Below are positions 2,876 to 49,184 of a stretch of 49,184 nucleotides of DNA, one piece after another. The notes beneath the pieces are model-generated. The model worked only from the letters and a program-made list of their open reading frames with translations. It was not told the DNA's origin and did not search any database. Origin of the DNA: Candidatus Woesearchaeota archaeon (lineage in GTDB: Archaea > Nanobdellota > Nanobdellia > Pacearchaeales > GW2011-AR1); NCBI GenBank assembly GCA_964530945.1, contig CAZHCJ010000004.1:1-49184 (forward strand), read 5' to 3'. Made by a program: the position numbers and the translations under genes. Every line of letters begins with the position of its first letter. The stretch's first letter is position 1.

Positions 2876-4042
2876 ATGGCTAAAATAAGTCCTGCATCTA
2901 TCAAGTATATGATACATGCAACATTTAGAATAGAAGGCGCACTAGAAAAGCCAGATGTAATCGGAGCCATATTCGGGCAAACTGAAGGTTTACTTGGAAG
3001 CGATTTGGAAATGCGTGAATTGCAAAAAGAAGGAAAAATAGGTAGAATAGAAGTTGAACTCGAAAGAAACAAGAGAATAACTACCGGAACAATAAAAGTT
3101 CCTACCGCTCTAGACCAATCTGAGACAACGCTTATTGCTGCTGCTTTGGAAACCATAGAAAAAATGGGTCCTGCAGATTCTCAAATAGAGATAGAAAGAA
3201 TTGAAGATGTTCGTGGCAGTAAAAGAGACTATATTATTGAAAGAGCAAAGAAACTGATGGGAAACATTAGTTCTGAAACAGATTCTAGAGAGATAAGCAA
3301 AGAAATCAAAGAATCTGTTAAGACCTCAGCAATACAAAAATATGGTAAGGAAAATTTGCCTGCCGGAGATATTTCTAGCAAGGAAATAGTGGTTGTTGAA
3401 GGGCGTGCAGATGTCTTAAACCTTTTGCGAGCAGGTGTTGAGAACGCAATAGGAATGAACGGAACAAAGCTTCCTGATGCTGTAAGAGATCTGACAAAAG
3501 AGAAAGAAACAACTTTATTTGTTGATGGCGATAGGGGAGGAAAGCTTATTGTTAAAAATGTTGTAGACAACGCAGAAATTGATTATATCGCTTTTGCTCC
3601 GGATGGTAAGGAAGTTGAAGAACTTAGTGGAAAGGAAATCCTTCAATGTTTGAGGAAAAAAATTTCTATTGAAGAATACACTAAAAATGTAAACCGAAAT
3701 AGAAAAAAGTACGATAGAAAAGACCAAAGCAAAAGTGATGAAAAGGCAAAAAAAGTAGAACTTACCAGCGAGCTCAGAAGTAACTTGGAAAAGAAGTTTG
3801 AAGAGAATAAAGGAAGTGGAAAAAGTGTTTTTTTAGATGACTCTCTGAAAGAGTTCAAAAAGGTTTCATCTAAAACAACATCAAGAGTTTTAAGAAAATT
3901 AAGAAGAAAACCTTCTATCATCGTGATTGACGGGACTGCAACAAAGAATATTCTTGAATCTGCTGAAGAAGCCGGTACGAGTATTGTTGTAGCAAAGACT
4001 TTCACTTCTACAGATGCAAATTTAGAACTATTGAGTTTTTAA
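2876..4042 (+). CDS. dnaG: Archaeal DnaG-type primase / exosome-associated TOPRIM protein
   Basis: KPDVIGAIFGQTEGLLG..LE.RELQK.GKIGRI; TOPRIM VVVEGRADV and DGDRGG; start moved to ATG 2876 (MAKISP). Confidence 0.95.
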   Translation: MAKISPASIKYMIHATFRIEGALEKPDVIGAIFGQTEGLLGSDLEMRELQKEGKIGRIEVELERNKRITTGTIKVPTALDQSETTLIAAALETIEKMGPADSQIEIERIEDVRGSKRDYIIERAKKLMGNISSETDSREISKEIKESVKTSAIQKYGKENLPAGDISSKEIVVVEGRADVLNLLRAGVENAIGMNGTKLPDAVRDLTKEKETTLFVDGDRGGKLIVKNVVDNAEIDYIAFAPDGKEVEELSGKEILQCLRKKISIEEYTKNVNRNRKKYDRKDQSKSDEKAKKVELTSELRSNLEKKFEENKGSGKSVFLDDSLKEFKKVSSKTTSRVLRKLRRKPSIIVIDGTATKNILESAEEAGTSIVVAKTFTSTDANLELLSF

Positions 4043-8064: not shown

Positions 8065-10929
8065 CTAAATCTCCAAACTAATTATCTTGCTTATGCCGTC
8101 GTGCATGCTAACTCCATAAAGGCTCGTGGCGTTGCTTATAACCTCGTCATTGTGCGTTATAACAATATACTGGCCCTTTTTCATGTACTTTGTTAAAAGT
8201 CCTGCAAGCCTTTGAGAGTTTCGTTTGTCAAGTGCAGCATCCACCTCATCGAGAAGATAAAAGTAATACGGATTGTATTCTTGTATAGCAAAAATAAGTG
8301 CCAATGCCACAAGGGTTTGTTCCCCTCCAGACAATGATTTTACATCAAAGTATTTTCCATGCCCGGTTTTGACTATTATGTTTAAGCCAGCAGAAAAAGG
8401 GTCTTTTCTGTTTTCTAATTCAAGATAAACCTGTCCTTTACTACTTAACTGAGCAAAATTGCGGGTAAATATCTCATTAACTTTTTCCATTGTTTCCATA
8501 AACGCCTTCTTTTTCTTTTTATCAATCTCTTCAATAACTTTCATTATATTCTCTTTTTCTTTTTCTATAGTTTCTGCTTTTAGCTTAATGCTGTCATATT
8601 CCCTCTTAACGCTGTCATAAACCTCAAGGCTACGAAGATTCACGTTGCCTATGCCATCTAGTATTTGTTGGGCTTTTGCTAAACGACGCTCTAATTTTTC
8701 TTTTTTGGTTTTGATTACATTTATATTTGGAAACTCTAGTAATTCGGTTTTAAGGTTTTCAATACTTGCATCCACTCCTGCTTTACTTATCTTTAAATCA
8801 TTAATTTTTTGCTCTATGTTTCTAAACGCATTCTCTTGATTTGAGACTTCAATTTCATTATCTCTAATGTTAGATTGAAGTTTTTCTCTTTCGGCAATCA
8901 AAGATTTATAACGTTCATTGAGTTCTTTTTCTTTTTCTTTCTTTTCAGACAAAATCTTTTCTTTATTTTGGATGGAATCTTCTAAACTCTTCAAAGTTTC
9001 ACCAAGCTCTGAAGCATTTCTTTTCAAATCTTTCAAAGTTACCTTTAGGCGTTCAACTTGACGTTCTTTAAAACTAATTTCTGAGCTGACACTTTCTTTT
9101 GTTCTTAAAGAAACTTCTTCAATTTCTATCTTTAAATTCTCATAGCGTTTTTCGACGTTTGCAATTTCGCTCACGCGTTCAGAAAGTTGTTTTTTTCTAT
9201 TCCTTAGTTTTTCTATTTCTTCCCTTAATTTCTCTATCTTCTCTTGAGTGTTCTTTATCTGATTTTTTTTATCCTCTACCTTGCCCAATTTTCCTAAATC
9301 GGATTCTGTTTTTTGAATTTCATCATTTAATTGTTCTATATCTCTTTCTAAAATTTCTTTTTTCTGATAAATATTTTTTAGTTGATTATCAGAATCTTTG
9401 ATTTTCTTTTCCAAAGACTCGATTTTTGGATATATATCTCCATGAATCTCATCCATGTGCTCAGGAGTTATCTTGCTCTTACAAACAGGGCAAATGTCAA
9501 GCTTTGAAATTTTATCGATAATCTTCTTTTGACTATCTATCTCTGCCTCGTTTAATGTTGTTTGGCGTTCCGTTTTTGCTTGCTTGGATAAAAGCGTTTT
9601 CAAATTTTCACGCTTTTCTGCCAGCGTTGCCCTGAGATTTTTAAGTTTCTCTTGATTTGAGCGTTTGTCATGAATCTCTATCGAAAGCTGTTCTATTTGC
9701 TTTAATAAGAAATCTGACTCCTTGTTATAATTTTGAAAGGTTTCGGTTTTGTCCTCAACTACGCTTTCTAACGACTTAAGCTCTGATTTCATCATATAAA
9801 GGCGTTTACGAGTATTCTCAAGCTTATCTAATTCTTTCTTCTTTTCATTAATCTCTTTGAGTTTCTTTTCGGAAACAGAGCCGCCTTTGCTTTTCTGTAA
9901 AGATTTAAGTTCTTCTTCTCCTTGTTCTATTGAAGTCTTAATTTCTTTTCTTTGGTTTTGAATATCTTGTATTTTGCTTTCTTGATTCTCTAGACGTACT
10001 CTCAATCCAGTAAGTTCTGCTCTCAGGTCTGCAATCTCTTGGTTTATTTTCTCTTGCTCTAAACCTGTTTCTTCTTGTATTTTGGAGTTGATATTAGAAA
10101 TTTTTTCTTGTGCGGATTTTATGTTAGATTGTGTGCTTGCAATATTCTTCTTTATTTTTTCTACTTCTTTATTATGTTTTTGGATGTCTTTATTTATGCC
10201 TTCAAGATTTTTTTCTTTTTGTCTTAAATCGGCGCTAATTATACTCGCTTTGAAAACTTTAATGTCTTTCTTCAATTTCTTATAACGCAATGCTTGCTTA
10301 CGTTCTTTTTCAAGATTATTCAGATAACTTGTTCTTTCCCTTAAAACGGAACTTATCTCTTTTAACCTATCATCTGTCTTCTCTAGCTCTCTGAGAGATT
10401 TCTTTTTCCTGGACTCGTAAATAGATATTCCAGAAACCTCTTCTATCACTTCTCGCCTTTCCTCAGGATGCTTTTGAACAAAATTTTGAATCTCGCCTTG
10501 CAAAACAATGTTAAAACCTTGAGGGTCTATTCCTGCCTGAGCCAAAAGTGCCAGGACTTCTTGGCGTGTTTTTGTTTTGCCATCTATCTTGTATGTACTT
10601 TGACCACTTTTCTTAACTATTCTTTTAACAGAAACTTCTTTCTTGTCTGTGGAAAAAACATTTTCTGAATTATCTAAAATGAGTTCTACTGAAGCTTGTT
10701 TAGCGGGCCCTGCTTCTTTGCTTCCCATAAAGATTAAATTTTTTGCTTTTGCCGCCCTAAGTGATTTTATGCTTAAGCGTCCTAAGACAAAACATATTGC
10801 ATCGCTGATGTTGCTCTTGCCAGAGCCATTCGGCCCAAGAATTACGTTTATTCCTTGAGTAAAGGGCACCTCTGTTTTGCGCGGAAAGCTTTTGAACCCG
10901 TGCATCACCAATTTTTTTATGTATGTCAA
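8065..10929 (-). CDS. smc: SMC-family chromosome segregation ATPase with central CxxC motif
   Basis: GFKSF, GPNGSGKSN, LSGGE..LVALALIFAIQ, LDEVDAALD; long coiled coils; CPVC at aa 480-483; TTG start. Confidence 0.88.
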   Translation of the reverse strand: MTYIKKLVMHGFKSFPRKTEVPFTQGINVILGPNGSGKSNISDAICFVLGRLSIKSLRAAKAKNLIFMGSKEAGPAKQASVELILDNSENVFSTDKKEVSVKRIVKKSGQSTYKIDGKTKTRQEVLALLAQAGIDPQGFNIVLQGEIQNFVQKHPEERREVIEEVSGISIYESRKKKSLRELEKTDDRLKEISSVLRERTSYLNNLEKERKQALRYKKLKKDIKVFKASIISADLRQKEKNLEGINKDIQKHNKEVEKIKKNIASTQSNIKSAQEKISNINSKIQEETGLEQEKINQEIADLRAELTGLRVRLENQESKIQDIQNQRKEIKTSIEQGEEELKSLQKSKGGSVSEKKLKEINEKKKELDKLENTRKRLYMMKSELKSLESVVEDKTETFQNYNKESDFLLKQIEQLSIEIHDKRSNQEKLKNLRATLAEKRENLKTLLSKQAKTERQTTLNEAEIDSQKKIIDKISKLDICPVCKSKITPEHMDEIHGDIYPKIESLEKKIKDSDNQLKNIYQKKEILERDIEQLNDEIQKTESDLGKLGKVEDKKNQIKNTQEKIEKLREEIEKLRNRKKQLSERVSEIANVEKRYENLKIEIEEVSLRTKESVSSEISFKERQVERLKVTLKDLKRNASELGETLKSLEDSIQNKEKILSEKKEKEKELNERYKSLIAEREKLQSNIRDNEIEVSNQENAFRNIEQKINDLKISKAGVDASIENLKTELLEFPNINVIKTKKEKLERRLAKAQQILDGIGNVNLRSLEVYDSVKREYDSIKLKAETIEKEKENIMKVIEEIDKKKKKAFMETMEKVNEIFTRNFAQLSSKGQVYLELENRKDPFSAGLNIIVKTGHGKYFDVKSLSGGEQTLVALALIFAIQEYNPYYFYLLDEVDAALDKRNSQRLAGLLTKYMKKGQYIVITHNDEVISNATSLYGVSMHDGISKIISLEI

Positions 10930-11100
10930 TTTATTTCCTTTTTATTTAATCGTCATGCTCGAAAATTTCTTGTTTTCGTTGTATGTCAATTTATTTCCTT
11001 TTTATTTAATCGTCATGCTCGAAAATTTCTTGTTTTCGTTGTATGTCATTTTTTCTGGAAAATTCATGCTCGAAAATTTCTTGTTTTCGTTGTATGTCAT
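10920..11100 (-). repeat. Tandem repeat array upstream of smc (units 60, 60, 51 bp; 36-bp identical core x3)
   Basis: TCATGCTCGAAAATTTCTTGTTTTCGTTGTATGTCA at 10953-10988, 11013-11048 and 11064-11099. Confidence 0.95.
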
Positions 11101-11208
11101 TTTGATCCTATTTTTTAATGAAAAATGACTTGCTTAAAAATCTTTGATTTTTATTAGGTGTCATCTTTATACAGAATTAGAGGATAATTAGTTTTTTAAA
11201 ATTGTTTA

Positions 11209-11898: not shown

Positions 11899-12639
11899 TT
11901 AAAAATCTAGCTTCTTTTGATTAGCTTTGCTTTGAGAATTCTTCCATGTACTCCAGGTTTTTCTAAATATTCCCGAATCTTTGTGTTTTTCTCCATGTTT
12001 TTTTAAGAATTCTTTTGTTACGGGGTCACTAGGATATCCAGAGCCAATATCTCCGTGTTTTTTCTTGATTTTGTCTACTTCTTTTTCTCTAGCTGATTTT
12101 GCAAGTATAGATGCCGCCGCAACCGCTATGTGGTTTTTATCTGCCTTGTGTTCGCACGAAAGCTCAAGATTGTCCAAACGATTCATCTGCGTTCTTAAGT
12201 AATCTGACCACTTGACTATACTAGGAGAAGGACAGTCAACAATAACGCGAATGTTGCGGGTTCCTACTTTTTTATTCAAATTATCTATGATTCTTGCGCA
12301 CGCGATTGCTTCCAACTCATTAAGTTTTAGGCCTTTTTTATTACTTTTATCTATCTCTTCAGGAAAAATGAGGACAACGTCGTAAGCCTTTGCTTTTTTG
12401 CGAATTATTTCCGCCAAGAACTCTCTTCTTTTCGGAGTGAGTTGCTTACTGTCCCTCACTCCTAACTCTCGCAATTCACTTTCCAAAGACTTCTCTATTA
12501 AGACTCCTGCAATTGCCATTGGGCCAATCAACGGACCTTAAGGCGAGCAATAGTGTAATACCCTTAACTCTCTACCTGCGTCGTCGACGCCCAATATTAA
12601 ATCGCTAGGACCTTTTTCTCCGCAGTTAACTTTATCCAT
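11899..12639 (-). CDS. rnhB: Ribonuclease HII, two exons (12639-12572, 12538-11899); 235 aa after splicing
   Basis: Removing 12539-12571 restores ILGVDDAGRGPLIGPM; also RDSK.L, HKAD, VAAASILAK, GSGYPSDP; exact start codon uncertain. Confidence 0.93.
12539..12571 (-). other. 33-nt bulge-helix-bulge intron in rnhB
   Basis: Central helix AGGU/GCCU, 3-nt bulges AG|A and UA|A, intron stem GAGU/GCUC; unspliced frame hits TAA. Confidence 0.88.
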
Positions 12640-13631
12640 TTTCCATTACTTTCCCTCCTTGTTAAATTTAATTTTTCGAGTTCCCTTAGTCTTCCAAAGG
12701 AAGACTTCCAATCAACACCAAATTTTTCCGCAAATTCAGATGTCTTTCTTGCTCTATTTAAAAACAAGAGATAATCCTTTTTAAGTTTTGATATGATTAT
12801 CAAATATTTATCATTAGTCCAATAATCTACACTTCCTACCCTAAAGTTTTTTATTTTGTTCTCTTTTTTTAATTGGATTAAAACATCTCTAACTCTTGCC
12901 GGAGACCTATTGATTAATTTGCTTATTTCCTTTGTGCTCAAGGGGTTTTTTAGTAATTTATAAATCTCTCTTTTAAGATAACCTTTCCCATAATGTTCTT
13001 CTTTAAAATTACCATATACTCTCCAAAACTTTTTCTTCTTATCTGGATGCAAATCATCTAAATTATTCTTAGCAAAGATATCCCAATTCCATTTTCCATA
13101 AATGACATAGTTTCTATTCTTTTCTCTGAAAGAAAATTCGAGTCCCAAGTTTTCCATTAAGATTTCAATAAATCCTTTCCTTTTCCCCTGCGAAATTCTC
13201 AGTTTTCTTGTGTTATGGCTCCCCTCATAAATGTTTCCCTCTCCTGAAAAAAATCCTCTTAAAATATATTTGTGTACTTCTTTGTTATCCAAATTTTCTT
13301 TTACTATCCCCTTCCATTCTTTCAACATCTTCACAGATGCTATTCTATGGATAAAATAAGGTCTTGTAGCTCTTTTGTGAATATATTCTTTTACAATTAC
13401 TTCTTTATAAGGGATTTCTACCTTTTCCTTATCTTTTGAGTAAATATATATTCTTATTTTATAGTTTTGATTAGGAAATACCTTCTTGATCGTTCTGTGA
13501 AATAAATCTACCAATTCCCAACAACTATTTGTAAATGTTATCTCTGACTTAGATTTTATTCCTCCTTCAGCTAGCCATAATCCTATACATTCCGCAACAT
13601 TCTTATCTAGGACGGATAAGTTGTCACCCAT
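12597..13631 (-). CDS. Free-standing LAGLIDADG endonuclease-like protein with C-terminal HTH domains
   Basis: Two LAGLIDADG-like helices (CIGLWLAEGG, ILRGFFSGEG); wHTH-like C-terminal segments; no intein splice motifs seen. Confidence 0.8.
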   Translation of the reverse strand: MGDNLSVLDKNVAECIGLWLAEGGIKSKSEITFTNSCWELVDLFHRTIKKVFPNQNYKIRIYIYSKDKEKVEIPYKEVIVKEYIHKRATRPYFIHRIASVKMLKEWKGIVKENLDNKEVHKYILRGFFSGEGNIYEGSHNTRKLRISQGKRKGFIEILMENLGLEFSFREKNRNYVIYGKWNWDIFAKNNLDDLHPDKKKKFWRVYGNFKEEHYGKGYLKREIYKLLKNPLSTKEISKLINRSPARVRDVLIQLKKENKIKNFRVGSVDYWTNDKYLIIISKLKKDYLLFLNRARKTSEFAEKFGVDWKSSFGRLRELEKLNLTRRESNGKWIKLTAEKKVLAI

Positions 13632-13762
13632 ATAAAAAACAATAATTCAAATTATTTAAGGGATTATGTTCATTTCAAAGTTAATCTCCAAAAGAAACTT
13701 TTATAAGTAAAATTACTCATCTTTTATTGGCCTAGTTATGGAAAGGCTCTAGTAAACACAAT

Positions 13763-13837
13763 AGCGGGATGGGGCAGTCTGGAGTGCCCGCGAGGCCCAT
13801 AACCTCGAGGTCGGAGGTTCAAATCCTTCTCCCGCTA
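13763..13837 (+). tRNA. tRNA-Met(CAT), probably initiator
   Basis: Cloverleaf AGCGGGA/TCCCGCT with A1-U72; anticodon CAT at 13798-13800; T-loop TTCAAAT. Confidence 0.93.
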
Positions 13838-13885
13838 TTCTCCTAACAAAAAACCTTAAAAGCTCAAATACTTCTATATGAGTAT

Positions 13886-14033
13886 GCCACGGTCGCATAA
13901 TGGTATTGCACCGGATTGCTAATGCCCAACTTTTGAAAAGTTCGGCGCTCAAACTAATGATATAGATTCCGAGCATAAAAAAGCAAACATCCGGACCCTT
14001 CGGGGTGCGCAGGTTCGATTCCTGCCCGTGGCG
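13886..14033 (+). tRNA. tRNA-Ser(GCT) with a 67-nt intron at 37/38 (13922-13988)
   Basis: GCCACGG/CCGTGGC acceptor stem, CCGGA/TCCGG anticodon stem, long variable arm; TTGC/GCAA central helix with AC|A bulge. Confidence 0.92.
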
Positions 14034-14042
14034 TTTTTTAAA

Positions 14043-47335: not shown

Positions 47336-49184
47336 ATGGCTAAAAACATTCAGGATTTTCCAAGAGTTCAAATAAATTTTAATCCAAGGGTTCCACCTTT
47401 GCAAAAAATAAAGGATAAAACCAAGATAAATGTGCGTTATGCAGTAATCTCTCCATACGTTTTTGTACATATTTATTGGGACCCTAAAGAATATGAGGTT
47501 ATTTATGAAGTTGAAGAACCTACTTTGACTAGTTTGGAGATGAGTTACAGAGAACAAATACTTAATGCTATGCGAGACATGATTAATTTTGATACTGTTA
47601 TTGATAAAGGGACTGAGCAACTTCTTGAGTACATTGACAAACGCTTCAAAGTCATTGCATCTGAATTAGGGATAACTATGGAATACGACACATATAGAAA
47701 AATCTATTACTATCTTGTTAGAGATTTTGTCGGTTTTAATGAAACCGACCCTTTGTTGAATGATTATTTCGTTGAAGATATAGAATGTAATGGTGCAGGT
47801 AGCCCGGTATACATTGTCCATAGGGTTTTTAGAAATCTTAAAACAAATATTGTGTTTGACGACATGGCTCGTCTTGAAAGTTTCGTTGAAAAATTGGCTC
47901 AAAGGAGTGGAAAACACATTTCTTATGCAGACCCTATATTAGATTCTAGTTTGCCCGATGGTTCAAGAGTTAATGCTACTTACACAAAAGATATAACTTC
48001 TCGCGGTCCAACATTCACAATTAGAAAATTCACTAAAACACCTTGGACACCTCCTCAACTTATTGGTTTTAGAACTCTTAGTCCTGAAATGCTCGCATAT
48101 TTATGGATTCTTGTTCAATATAAGATGAATCTTTTGTTAACCGGAGGTACTTCTTCTGGAAAAACTACTTTACTTAATGCTATAGCGTTTTTCATTCCTC
48201 CTGAATCTAGAGTAGTAAGTATTGAAGATAGTGTAACTGGAGATTCAAGAATTTTGGTTCGAAAAGATGGAAAAATAAAAAACACCACTATAAAAAAACT
48301 AGTTGATGAAAAAATGGATGCTGAAGTCATGACGCTTAACGAAAAAGAAGAGATTGTTTGGGTTAAGCCCTCAGATTACATAAAACACAAAGTTAAAAAA
48401 GACATTTATGAAATTCTTACTGCTACAGGTAGAAAAATAAAAGTTACTAAAGACCATAGTCTTTTCACATTAGGGAATTCGGGTTTGGAAGAAGTAAAGC
48501 CCAAAGACCTAAAAGAAAACGAATCTTTTGTTGCTGTTCCCAGAAATCTTCCCATTGAAGGCAAAAAAATAAAAGGTGTAAATCTCATTAACCATCTTGA
48601 ACATTTTAAAGATGATTTTCTTCAGGGAAAACCAATAGGAAAAATGCTTAAAAAATATGATTATAAAAAACTAGGCGTTAAAAAACAGAGATTTAGATGG
48701 TGGAAAAATCGCAACATAATAAAGGTAAGTAAATTCATAGAGCTCAATGAAAAATTTTCAATAAAAGAAATTGAAAAACTCAATATTAAAAGTAAAAATA
48801 CAGGGTCTATTCCCGTATTGTTTAAAATAGACAAAGAATTTTTGGAATTTCTTGGATTGTGGATTGGAGACGGAAGCTACGACAGGCACAATAAAAACTC
48901 AGTTATTGTTTCAAATTCAGATGAAGAATGCAGAGAAATTGTTAAAAAAGTTTCAAAAAACCTTGGTTTAAATTACTCTTTAATGAGTGACGGAGGAGTC
49001 TCTATAAGAATTCATAGCACTGTTTTTTATAAATTTATGAAAGATGTTTTAGAGTTTAAAGGACGCTCTTCAACTAAAAAAGTTCCAGATTTCATCCATA
49101 ATTTATCAAATGAACAGATAAAACATTTTTTGCGTGGATATTTCAGTGCAGACGGAACCGTGAAAACCTTTGGAGTTTCTTGTT
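47336..49184 (+). CDS. Type II/IV secretion (VirB11/FlaI-like) ATPase, intein-containing, truncated by the window edge
   Basis: ATG 47336; EDIECNG, LPDGSRV, FTIRKF, Walker A TGGTSSGKTT, VSIED; not in the ORF track because it runs off the end. Confidence 0.92.
   Translation, partial: MAKNIQDFPRVQINFNPRVPPLQKIKDKTKINVRYAVISPYVFVHIYWDPKEYEVIYEVEEPTLTSLEMSYREQILNAMRDMINFDTVIDKGTEQLLEYIDKRFKVIASELGITMEYDTYRKIYYYLVRDFVGFNETDPLLNDYFVEDIECNGAGSPVYIVHRVFRNLKTNIVFDDMARLESFVEKLAQRSGKHISYADPILDSSLPDGSRVNATYTKDITSRGPTFTIRKFTKTPWTPPQLIGFRTLSPEMLAYLWILVQYKMNLLLTGGTSSGKTTLLNAIAFFIPPESRVVSIEDSVTGDSRILVRKDGKIKNTTIKKLVDEKMDAEVMTLNEKEEIVWVKPSDYIKHKVKKDIYEILTATGRKIKVTKDHSLFTLGNSGLEEVKPKDLKENESFVAVPRNLPIEGKKIKGVNLINHLEHFKDDFLQGKPIGKMLKKYDYKKLGVKKQRFRWWKNRNIIKVSKFIELNEKFSIKEIEKLNIKSKNTGSIPVLFKIDKEFLEFLGLWIGDGSYDRHNKNSVIVSNSDEECREIVKKVSKNLGLNYSLMSDGGVSIRIHSTVFYKFMKDVLEFKGRSSTKKVPDFIHNLSNEQIKHFLRGYFSADGTVKTFGVSC
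48230..49184 (+). mobile_element. Intein with LAGLIDADG endonuclease (partial)
   Basis: After SIED: block A SVTGDSRILV, block B VTKDHSLF, LAGLIDADG motifs FLGLWIGDG and FLRGYFSADG. Confidence 0.9.

Follow-up and report, generated by a model that had tools for sequence, protein, structure and literature searches.

Predicted bulge–helix–bulge introns in the rnhB genes of DPANN archaea, most likely one half of a nuclease-plus-intron mobile element

A bulge–helix–bulge (BHB) intron in the mRNA of the crenarchaeal gene cbf5 was reportedly described by Watanabe in 2002, and the host introns of the homing endonucleases I-DmoI and I-Tsp061I, which interrupt rRNA genes, are likewise of the BHB type and spread by homing of their DNA. 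The DNA analysed here ("the window") is a stretch of 49,184 bp that makes up the entire contig C4 of G000, a genome assembly of a Candidatus Woesearchaeota archaeon (598 kb, 34% G+C, 91.7% complete). Its minus strand carries the RNase HII gene rnhB, whose coding sequence is interrupted by 33 nt within the codons of the motif DDAGRGP, and directly upstream of rnhB a gene for a LAGLIDADG protein. Together with the nuclease-plus-intron layer described below, the overall explanation that we consider very likely is that the 33 nt are an archaeal BHB intron in the rnhB coding sequence; judged from homologous loci, such an intron is widespread in DPANN archaea, and it is most likely half of a nuclease-plus-intron mobile element.

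A first-pass annotation of the window had named cbf5 as the classic archaeal mRNA case, in agreement with excerpts of Yokobori 2009 (PMC2738675), in which archaeal pre-mRNA splicing is confirmed for cbf5 alone and the cbf5 BHB is cut between the second and third bulge residues, and of Schwarz 2020 (PMC7714728), in which cbf5 is the sole earlier mRNA case and an intron in a 5′ untranslated region in Haloferax is added; the excerpted text of Kaneta 2018 (PMC5829648) likewise cites a pre-mRNA BHB for cbf5 only. By the same excerpts of PMC7714728, cbf5 alone carried the coding-sequence introns of the archaeal splicing endonuclease for more than 20 years. On our reading, rnhB would be a second such gene, in a different superphylum. 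An rnhB intron was new to the first-pass annotation, and our literature search, which had subscription journals and supplements outside its reach, found no published report of an rnhB intron or of such a nuclease–intron pair. Like the cbf5 intron (PMC2738675, in excerpt), that of rnhB would be a short BHB intron in coding sequence, with the same cut sites, a restored frame, an often relaxed motif, and gains and losses among relatives. It differs in lying in rnhB of a DPANN archaeon with an apparently single-gene splicing endonuclease (EndA), whereas cbf5 splicing is tied in that excerpt to a hetero-oligomeric enzyme, and in travelling with a nuclease gene, none being mentioned there for cbf5.

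The pairing of an intron with a neighbouring nuclease gene also has a described counterpart, the free-standing F-CphI beside the psbA group I intron of cyanophage S-PM2 (Zeng, Bonocora and Shub 2009, as presented in excerpts of PMC6083498). In both systems a free-standing nuclease adjoins an intron that has no open reading frame (ORF) and lies in a conserved gene, and in the F-CphI system the intron interrupts the nuclease target and the nuclease confers mobility. The psbA intron belongs to a phage and splices itself as a group I ribozyme, with an Endo VII-type nuclease whose cleavage has been shown, whereas the rnhB intron is 22–52 nt long in different genes, would need EndA and the ligase RtcB, and stands beside a gene for a putative LAGLIDADG nuclease in a cellular archaeon. 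I-DmoI and I-Tsp061I are among the best structural matches of the upstream protein; each is the product of an ORF inside a long rRNA-gene intron, whereas the rnhB-linked gene is separate from its mini-intron, precedes a protein-coding gene and encodes two extra winged-helix domains. With pre-tRNA BHB introns the rnhB intron shares its motif and presumed enzymes, and tRNAs of G000 have the same 4-bp helices and 3-nt bulges (e.g., UA/A). Unlike theirs, its exon side is coding sequence and not an anticodon stem, so that the outer helix is irregular and made from codon choices.

The minus-strand sequence across 12571..12539 is as the first-pass annotation gave it, and translation of the locus bears out its claim that an in-frame TAA at 12540..12538 splits the catalytic DD from the rest of RNase HII (features are collected in Table 1). 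Removal of 12571..12539 restores the DDAGRGP motif that is seen uninterrupted in all readable relatives (below). Exon 1 supplies the first two acidic residues of the RNase HII active site (a role that we take the D/E of its GVDDAG motif to have), and exon 2 reads GPLIGPMAIAG... and is coding down to 11902. In a profile search, residues 35–231 of the read-through match the RNase HII family PF01351 of Pfam (E = 4 × 10⁻⁴⁰), and the first 8 positions of the RNase_HII profile fall in the GVDDAG-bearing exon 1. This interrupted gene is the sole RNase HII match that a genome-wide protein search returns from the 91.7%-complete assembly. The position of the start codon, 12639, is suggested by an N-terminal extension, MDK..., that is common to other LAGLIDADG-linked alleles. 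It had also been pointed out that the ORF track begins past the motif, and a TTG ORF (11899..12531) does follow the insert; in many DPANN genomes, gene callers can be expected to overlook or truncate this gene, which is essential for replication and repair, and metabolic and completeness inferences would be affected.

An unconstrained minimum free energy (MFE) fold of 12600..12520 contains the AGGU/GCCU helix, the bulge AGA, the GAGU/GCUC stem, the bulge UAA(G) and a 14-bp interrupted exon–exon helix, and thereby reproduces the BHB geometry first proposed for the junctions. The two 3-nt bulges lie on opposite strands with the 4-bp helix between them, each bulge 3′ of its helix strand, and cuts after the second base of each do, as had been claimed, excise exactly 33 nt and restore DDAGR/GPLIGP. 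The energy of this fold is unremarkable (z = −1.81; 11 of 200 shuffles are equally stable), and the relaxed BHB motif is frequent by chance, with 895 canonical and 856 mirror-image matches on one strand of the contig (~1.3 × 10⁻⁴ per position pair). It is the register that is improbable, because the cuts prescribed by the motif excise exactly the extra 33 nt; the contig-wide motif scan leads to an estimated chance of ~4 × 10⁻⁴ that a random 33-nt insert sits in a fitting BHB register (three cut registers give the same product).

The motif is relaxed on the exon side, where 1 bp is followed by a bulged base and then by further pairs, and its inner helix is 4 bp long. The exon–exon duplex of G000 reaches −32.8 kcal/mol, against a mean of −17.1 (standard deviation 3.9, best −25.9) in 28 intron-less relatives. 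The duplex is made up of GUC and GAC codons, which G000 uses rarely: in ORFs of at least 200 amino acids (aa), GAC accounts for 27% of the codons for Asp and GUC for 12% of those for Val. This suggests that codon choice around the junction serves RNA structure. A genome-wide search of G000 found no second copy of the intron, and a repeat or transposon remnant is ruled out by this single copy; an Rfam search gave no match at the intron, its only matches being the two tRNAs.

How the insert is distributed among rnhB genes was followed outwards from G000. An rnhB match is present in 56 of 60 relatives, and in the fetched loci an uninterrupted G(I/V)D(D/E)AG(R/K)GP is read in all 28 relatives whose N-terminus is readable; in 12 further, more distant relatives the matches start past the site, and 11 of these, all but L279, read as uninterrupted and nuclease-free. 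The rnhB of the closest relative, the sister genome G012 (locus L003), is 78% identical to that of G000 and uninterrupted, reading ...LILGIDDAGKGPLIGP. The 28 uninterrupted relatives and the chance of ~4 × 10⁻⁴ together lead us to regard the G000 insert as real, specific among near kin and in exact register. Of 160 further rnhB loci from a protein search, 156 lack an interruption and 2 are truncated by a contig end; the other two, L106 and L119, have a 41-nt insert at the same rnhB codon as G000. A junction-pattern search of genome contigs hit 13 places, of which 12 are rnhB genes with a 28–42 nt insert at that codon and one is unrelated, and a LAGLIDADG-seeded search (below) added many more. 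With duplicates removed there are 56 distinct DPANN rnhB genes with an insert of 22–52 nt at this codon, so that the presence/absence comparison proposed at the outset gives absence in 28/28 readable near relatives and presence in 55 other distinct genes. Relatives found by protein search have record titles that include Pacearchaeota, Woesearchaeota and Nanoarchaeota, which fits the first-pass label of a "DPANN-like" host.

Insert lengths are divisible by three in 16 of the 56 genes, the share expected if the insert is never translated, and the unspliced reading is frameshifted in the other 40. The longest insert (52 nt; L246 ~3060–3140, in a record titled Iainarchaeum) still has the 4-bp helix and 3-nt bulges in register. 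An intron of this kind, down to 22 nt, would be a small cassette of natural origin that is spliced by proteins, and it might be useful in tools for splicing or circularising RNA.

In the 56-gene set, which was not selected for structure, intron boundaries were placed solely by the protein motifs. In the register so defined, 48 of these genes form all four central pairs, and another 4 fit in a register shifted by one or two bases with the motif still restored, 52/56 overall; none of the 56 inserts fits the mirror geometry. The 5′ bulge is AGA in 37/56 and the 3′ bulge UAA in 18/56 homologous introns, and the inner helix is 2–13 bp long in introns other than that of G000. Two central pairs are invariant and derive from the GG of the Gly codon, and the two outer ones involve the wobble base of the Ala codon and that of the Gly codon. 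These variable pairs, H1 and H4, are paired in 51/56 and 50/56 genes, respectively, against shuffled means of 23.5 (maximum 33 in 500 shuffles) and 28.6 (maximum 37). An alignment of 49 sequences, pre-selected by a strict BHB filter so that its percentage of pairing is partly circular, has 92% of cells paired against 65% when shuffled and 29–53% in slid-partner controls; the unselected 56-gene count is therefore the fair figure. The same 49 sequences contain 132 double-sided changes against 35.5 in shuffles (none of 500 as high). In the central helix (columns 18–21 with 62–65), the two wobble positions show 21 and 12 double changes with the intron, and RNAalifold predicts the inner helix from the same sequences, each of its 6 pairs being supported by compensatory changes. 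By these alignments, the BHB structure is conserved through compensatory changes, the dozens of natural rnhB variants amounting to a ready covariation experiment.

The host gene and the machinery look functional by the same kind of evidence. The ratio of nonsynonymous to synonymous substitution rates (dN/dS) in exon 2 is 0.05–0.2 in the 8 computable pairs of intron-bearing genes, pointing to purifying selection, and the exon 1 motif G-x-D-D/E-A/S-G is kept in all intron-bearing genes. G000 encodes an intact EndA in a single 179-aa gene (G000:C1:48940-49476), whose best relatives in the PDB include the homotetrameric M. jannaschii enzyme and the N. equitans alpha subunit, and an intact RtcB ligase (G000:C3:12461-13747). 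It also has six tRNA introns of 18–72 nt with canonical hBHBh′ motifs and bulges like those of rnhB. The first-pass interpretation of the insert as a BHB intron is thus supported by the 56 distinct interrupted genes, the covarying BHB, purifying selection and the encoded enzymes, and very probably the rnhB transcript is cleaved by EndA and its exons are ligated. In G000, cbf5 (TruB_N) is uninterrupted. The suggested genome-wide scan for split genes was run, and with 1394 canonical BHB-rescued ORFs against 1392 in the mirror control it has no power to detect other mRNA introns in G000.

In the transcript, AGGU at the end of exon 1 (Ala-Gly codons) would pair with GCCU, which lies shortly before the intron ends, giving a 4-bp helix between two 3-nt bulges that would be closed on one side by the intron hairpin and on the other by the long exon–exon helix. 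The host EndA would cut after the second base of each bulge and RtcB would ligate the exons into an mRNA for a 235-aa RNase HII with DDAGRGP intact; unspliced RNA would yield only a 33-aa peptide, or a protein lacking the first two catalytic residues.

Two of the tRNA introns called by ARAGORN in G000, in tRNA-Ser(GCU) (window 13885–14034, plus strand) and tRNA-Gly(GCC) (G000:C10:14291-14408), are near-identical over ~30 nt, and a strict BHB scan found no canonical motif in either; they are possibly a shared mobile or functional module.

Table 1. Positions of the interrupted rnhB gene, its predicted intron structure and the upstream gene in the window.
Feature	Position	Strand	Description
rnhB exon 1	12572..12639	minus	68 nt; ATG at 12639 to 5′ splice site; M..LILGVDDAG plus two Arg-codon bases
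Predicted BHB intron, 33 nt	12539..12571	minus	in-frame stop TAA 12540..12538, made by the 3′ bulge
rnhB exon 2	11899..12538	minus	637 nt plus stop 11899..11901; last Arg-codon base, then GPLIGP...
Central 4-bp helix, 5′ strand AGGU	12574..12577	minus	last Ala-codon base plus Gly codon; pairs with 12541..12544
Central 4-bp helix, 3′ strand GCCU	12541..12544	minus	within intron
5′ bulge AGA	12571..12573	minus	predicted cut 12572/12571
3′ bulge UAA	12538..12540	minus	predicted cut 12539/12538
Intron hairpin	12545..12570	minus	GAGU 12570..12567 with GCUC 12548..12545; 18-nt loop
Exon–exon (outer) helix, 5′ strand	12580..12593	minus	GGC GUC GAC GAC region; codons rare in G000
Exon–exon (outer) helix, 3′ strand	12520..12536	minus	within GPLIGP-coding part
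LAGLIDADG protein gene, 344 aa	12597..13631	minus	double-motif LAGLIDADG domain plus two winged-helix domains

The LAGLIDADG gene that travels with the intron had been missed by the first-pass annotation. It overlaps the beginning of rnhB by 43 nt and stops ~25 nt short of the intron site. A Pfam LAGLIDADG_3 match is found in 9/9 family members, and an AF2 model built with 49 homologues (pLDDT 93.3) has E-DreI and I-DmoI as its top Foldseek matches in the PDB (I-DmoI E = 1.6 × 10⁻⁵, target TM 0.62–0.66), followed by others that include WhiA (rank 7), the bI3 maturase (rank 9), I-Tsp061I, PI-SceI and PI-PfuI; the C-terminal part resembles the winged-helix domains of SelB. A sequence search of the PDB with the LAGLIDADG profile returned a weak winged-helix match only. 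The protein has the double αββαββα fold, in which each of the two LAGLIDADG helices ends in a Glu. The LAGLIDADG motifs read GLWLAEG and GFFAGEG, and their acidic residues, which by analogy with I-DmoI we take to be the catalytic positions, are kept: E131 in at least 90% of 49 homologues, and E22 in all of them, an invariance that is partly by construction since the first motif was part of the search pattern. We regard the product as a putative homing endonuclease of the free-standing kind. In L119, a distant LAGLIDADG paralogue (26% identity; L119 3096–3632) follows ~1 kb downstream of the intron-bearing rnhB as a second such gene, and a weak one (25% identity) occurs in the window itself, as an intein-like insert after ...SIEDS, with motifs LGLWIGDGS and LRGYFSADG. 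The ORF that contains this insert (47336–49183, plus strand) runs off the contig end and encodes an ATPase of the secretion or archaellum type, with the Walker A sequence GGTSSGKTT.

A single-protein search of genome contigs with the LAGLIDADG protein gave no match; the alignment-based search succeeded, its profile finding 66 loci of the family in the genomes of 185,579 species. In 63/63 informative loci the family member lies directly upstream of rnhB, mostly with its stop 26–35 nt before the intron site, and the intron is present in 50 of the 63 and absent from 13. The records concerned are titled Pace-, Woese-, Aenigmat-, Nanohalo-, Micr- and Iainarchaeota, the proteins are 48–63% identical to that of G000, and several of the nuclease genes beside intact introns are broken or truncated. 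Sorting 219 distinct rnhB genes by both features gives 45 with intron and nuclease gene, 7 with intron and a partial nuclease gene, 4 with the intron only, 10 with the nuclease gene only and 112 with neither; 39 others have no intron and an unreadable upstream region, and 2 are cut at a contig edge. In the samples seeded by neither feature the corresponding first five counts are 2, 0, 0, 1 and 112. An even draw of 151 genomes of the order has strong nuclease matches in just 2 (G000 and G177), both with the intron. The gene is therefore polymorphic for presence at a fixed site, as seen in G000 against G012 and in 2/151 genomes, and always upstream of rnhB.

G000 and G012 share the order tRNA-Ser, tRNA-Met, rnhB, and G012 has neither the nuclease gene of ~1.1 kb nor the intron: from tRNA-Met to the LILGID codons there are ~90 nt in G012 and 1162 nt, including the nuclease gene, in G000, to which the intron is added. 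The tRNA-Met beside this cassette aligns continuously in G000 (window 13762–13838) and as two blocks ~30 nt apart in G012 (L003 1304–1411), as may happen if an intron is present in the latter, and G012 has ~470 extra nt between tRNA-Ser and tRNA-Met relative to G000. On the rnhB tree of 219 tips there are two large all-intron clades (30 and 10 tips) and six intron-bearing singletons in a 157-tip clade that is otherwise intron-less.

By analogy with the described nuclease–intron pair, and with moderate confidence, we regard the intron and the LAGLIDADG gene as a two-part selfish element of cellular archaea ("collaborative homing"). In this scheme, rnhB alleles that lack the intron would be cleaved by the LAGLIDADG protein within or close to the codons for DDAGRGP. 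Repair templated by the donor allele would bring in the nuclease gene together with the intron ~25–35 nt downstream of it, a piece of 22–52 nt that contains neither catalytic RNA nor an ORF. The intron would then disrupt the nuclease target and shield its carrier, while host splicing would keep rnhB working. A target within the codons of a catalytic motif should allow few silent escapes, which would explain an intron as the mask of the site, and loci with a decayed nuclease gene, the intron only or the nuclease only look like stages of a cycle of gain, decay and loss. If true, the two-part element would give tRNA-type introns a way into mRNAs and a means of staying there, and the link to a nuclease makes testable how BHB introns, which encode and catalyse nothing, spread to new sites. 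Target-site immunity of the nuclease-bearing intron-less alleles was considered, and the counts are of no use as evidence for it: Ser replaces Ala in 3/10 nuclease-only genes against 2/112 with neither feature (and the AGA codon is found in 2/10 against 72/112), and DDSG is common (7/11) in nuclease-free genomes of other families of the order. In L259 (~3014–3100) an rnhB beside an intact LAGLIDADG gene has no intron and reads GIDEARRGPIIS, the conserved Gly of the motif being replaced; this is possibly a target-site change or a decaying gene.

Several observations weigh against reading the locus as a host-spliced intron in a mobile pair. Most intron-bearing loci come from searches seeded with the intron or the nuclease, 4/56 introns have a single mismatch in the central helix, and RNAalifold predicts neither the central nor the outer helix from the 49 sequences. 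In G000 and most homologues the exon-side helix beside the 3′ bulge is only 1 bp long before an irregularity, and EndA of the alpha4 type was, in the excerpts of Kaneta 2018 (PMC5829648), long thought to require a strict BHB; the same excerpts connect an extra loop in the alpha4 enzymes of DPANN archaea with a greater number of disrupted tRNA genes. Among the sequencing runs searched, no RNA run is listed for window 12300–12800, and Logan contigs of the one DNA run found (depth ~4) end at 12402 and 12638, leaving 12403–12637, and with it the insert, uncovered. This coverage is what could be cited for an assembly or binning artefact, which is nevertheless extremely improbable, as independent assemblies from many studies have homologous inserts at the same codon and an artefact would form no BHB in register. 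The stop of the unspliced frame at TAA, the TTG ORF after the insert and the missing RNA run would suit a disabling mutation that makes rnhB a pseudogene, or a TTG ORF product that is inactive or differently used. An in-register BHB would arise by chance with a probability of only ~4 × 10⁻⁴, 55 other genes are interrupted at this codon by inserts whose BHB covaries, exon 2 has a dN/dS of 0.05–0.2 and the exon 1 motif is intact throughout; the refutation is already strong, and we hold either form of this explanation to be very improbable. An intein is ruled out, as the insert holds a stop or shifts the frame, and translational bypass or frameshifting is ruled out by lengths of 22–52 nt with a conserved BHB.

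Two further explanations accept host splicing and dispute the selfish layer, and we think each of them unlikely. The LAGLIDADG protein could be a domesticated DNA- or RNA-binding factor that either regulates rnhB in the manner of WhiA or, like a maturase, stabilises the exon-side helix for EndA, so that the linkage would be functional; the structural matches to WhiA and the bI3 maturase, the winged helices like the RNA-binding SelB domains and the weakness of that helix in most introns all suit this idea. WhiA has lost the acidic LAGLIDADG residues, whereas both are kept here; moreover, 4 intron-bearing genes have no such neighbour and several a broken one with rnhB intact, 10 distinct genes have the protein without the intron, and the distribution is sporadic (the 2 of 151 genomes). 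In the other explanation, also improbable in our judgement, intron and nuclease gene became neighbours long ago, have been inherited vertically with many losses and are not mobile at present, their association reflecting shared ancestry and biased sampling. The all-intron clades of 30 and 10 tips speak for it, intron and nuclease each change only 12 times on the 219-tip tree, and the independent-pairs test is non-significant (~4.4 independent contrasts in the same direction against 0.4 in the other, median p 0.125). The modest identity of the nuclease proteins (just 48–63% to that of G000) is also in its favour, as is the lack of a co-conversion tract in exon 2 of G000, which is nearest to intron-less kin from the first window on. 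On the other side stand the six singletons in the otherwise intron-less clade, the sister G012 without both parts, and a family that is spread over several DPANN phyla (by record titles) yet present in so few genomes of the order; strict vertical descent would demand very many parallel losses of both parts.

Two observations concern the assembly and the window at large. Contigs C23, C25 and C26 of G000 (1.5–1.7 kb) have 47–53% G+C against 32–35% in all others and are likely foreign to the bin or rRNA-type sequence. At window 10855–11128 a peptide is tripled in the ORF translations of both strands (e.g., ...FISFLFNRHARKFLVFVVC...), which indicates a probable tandem DNA repeat with a unit of ~70–80 nt.

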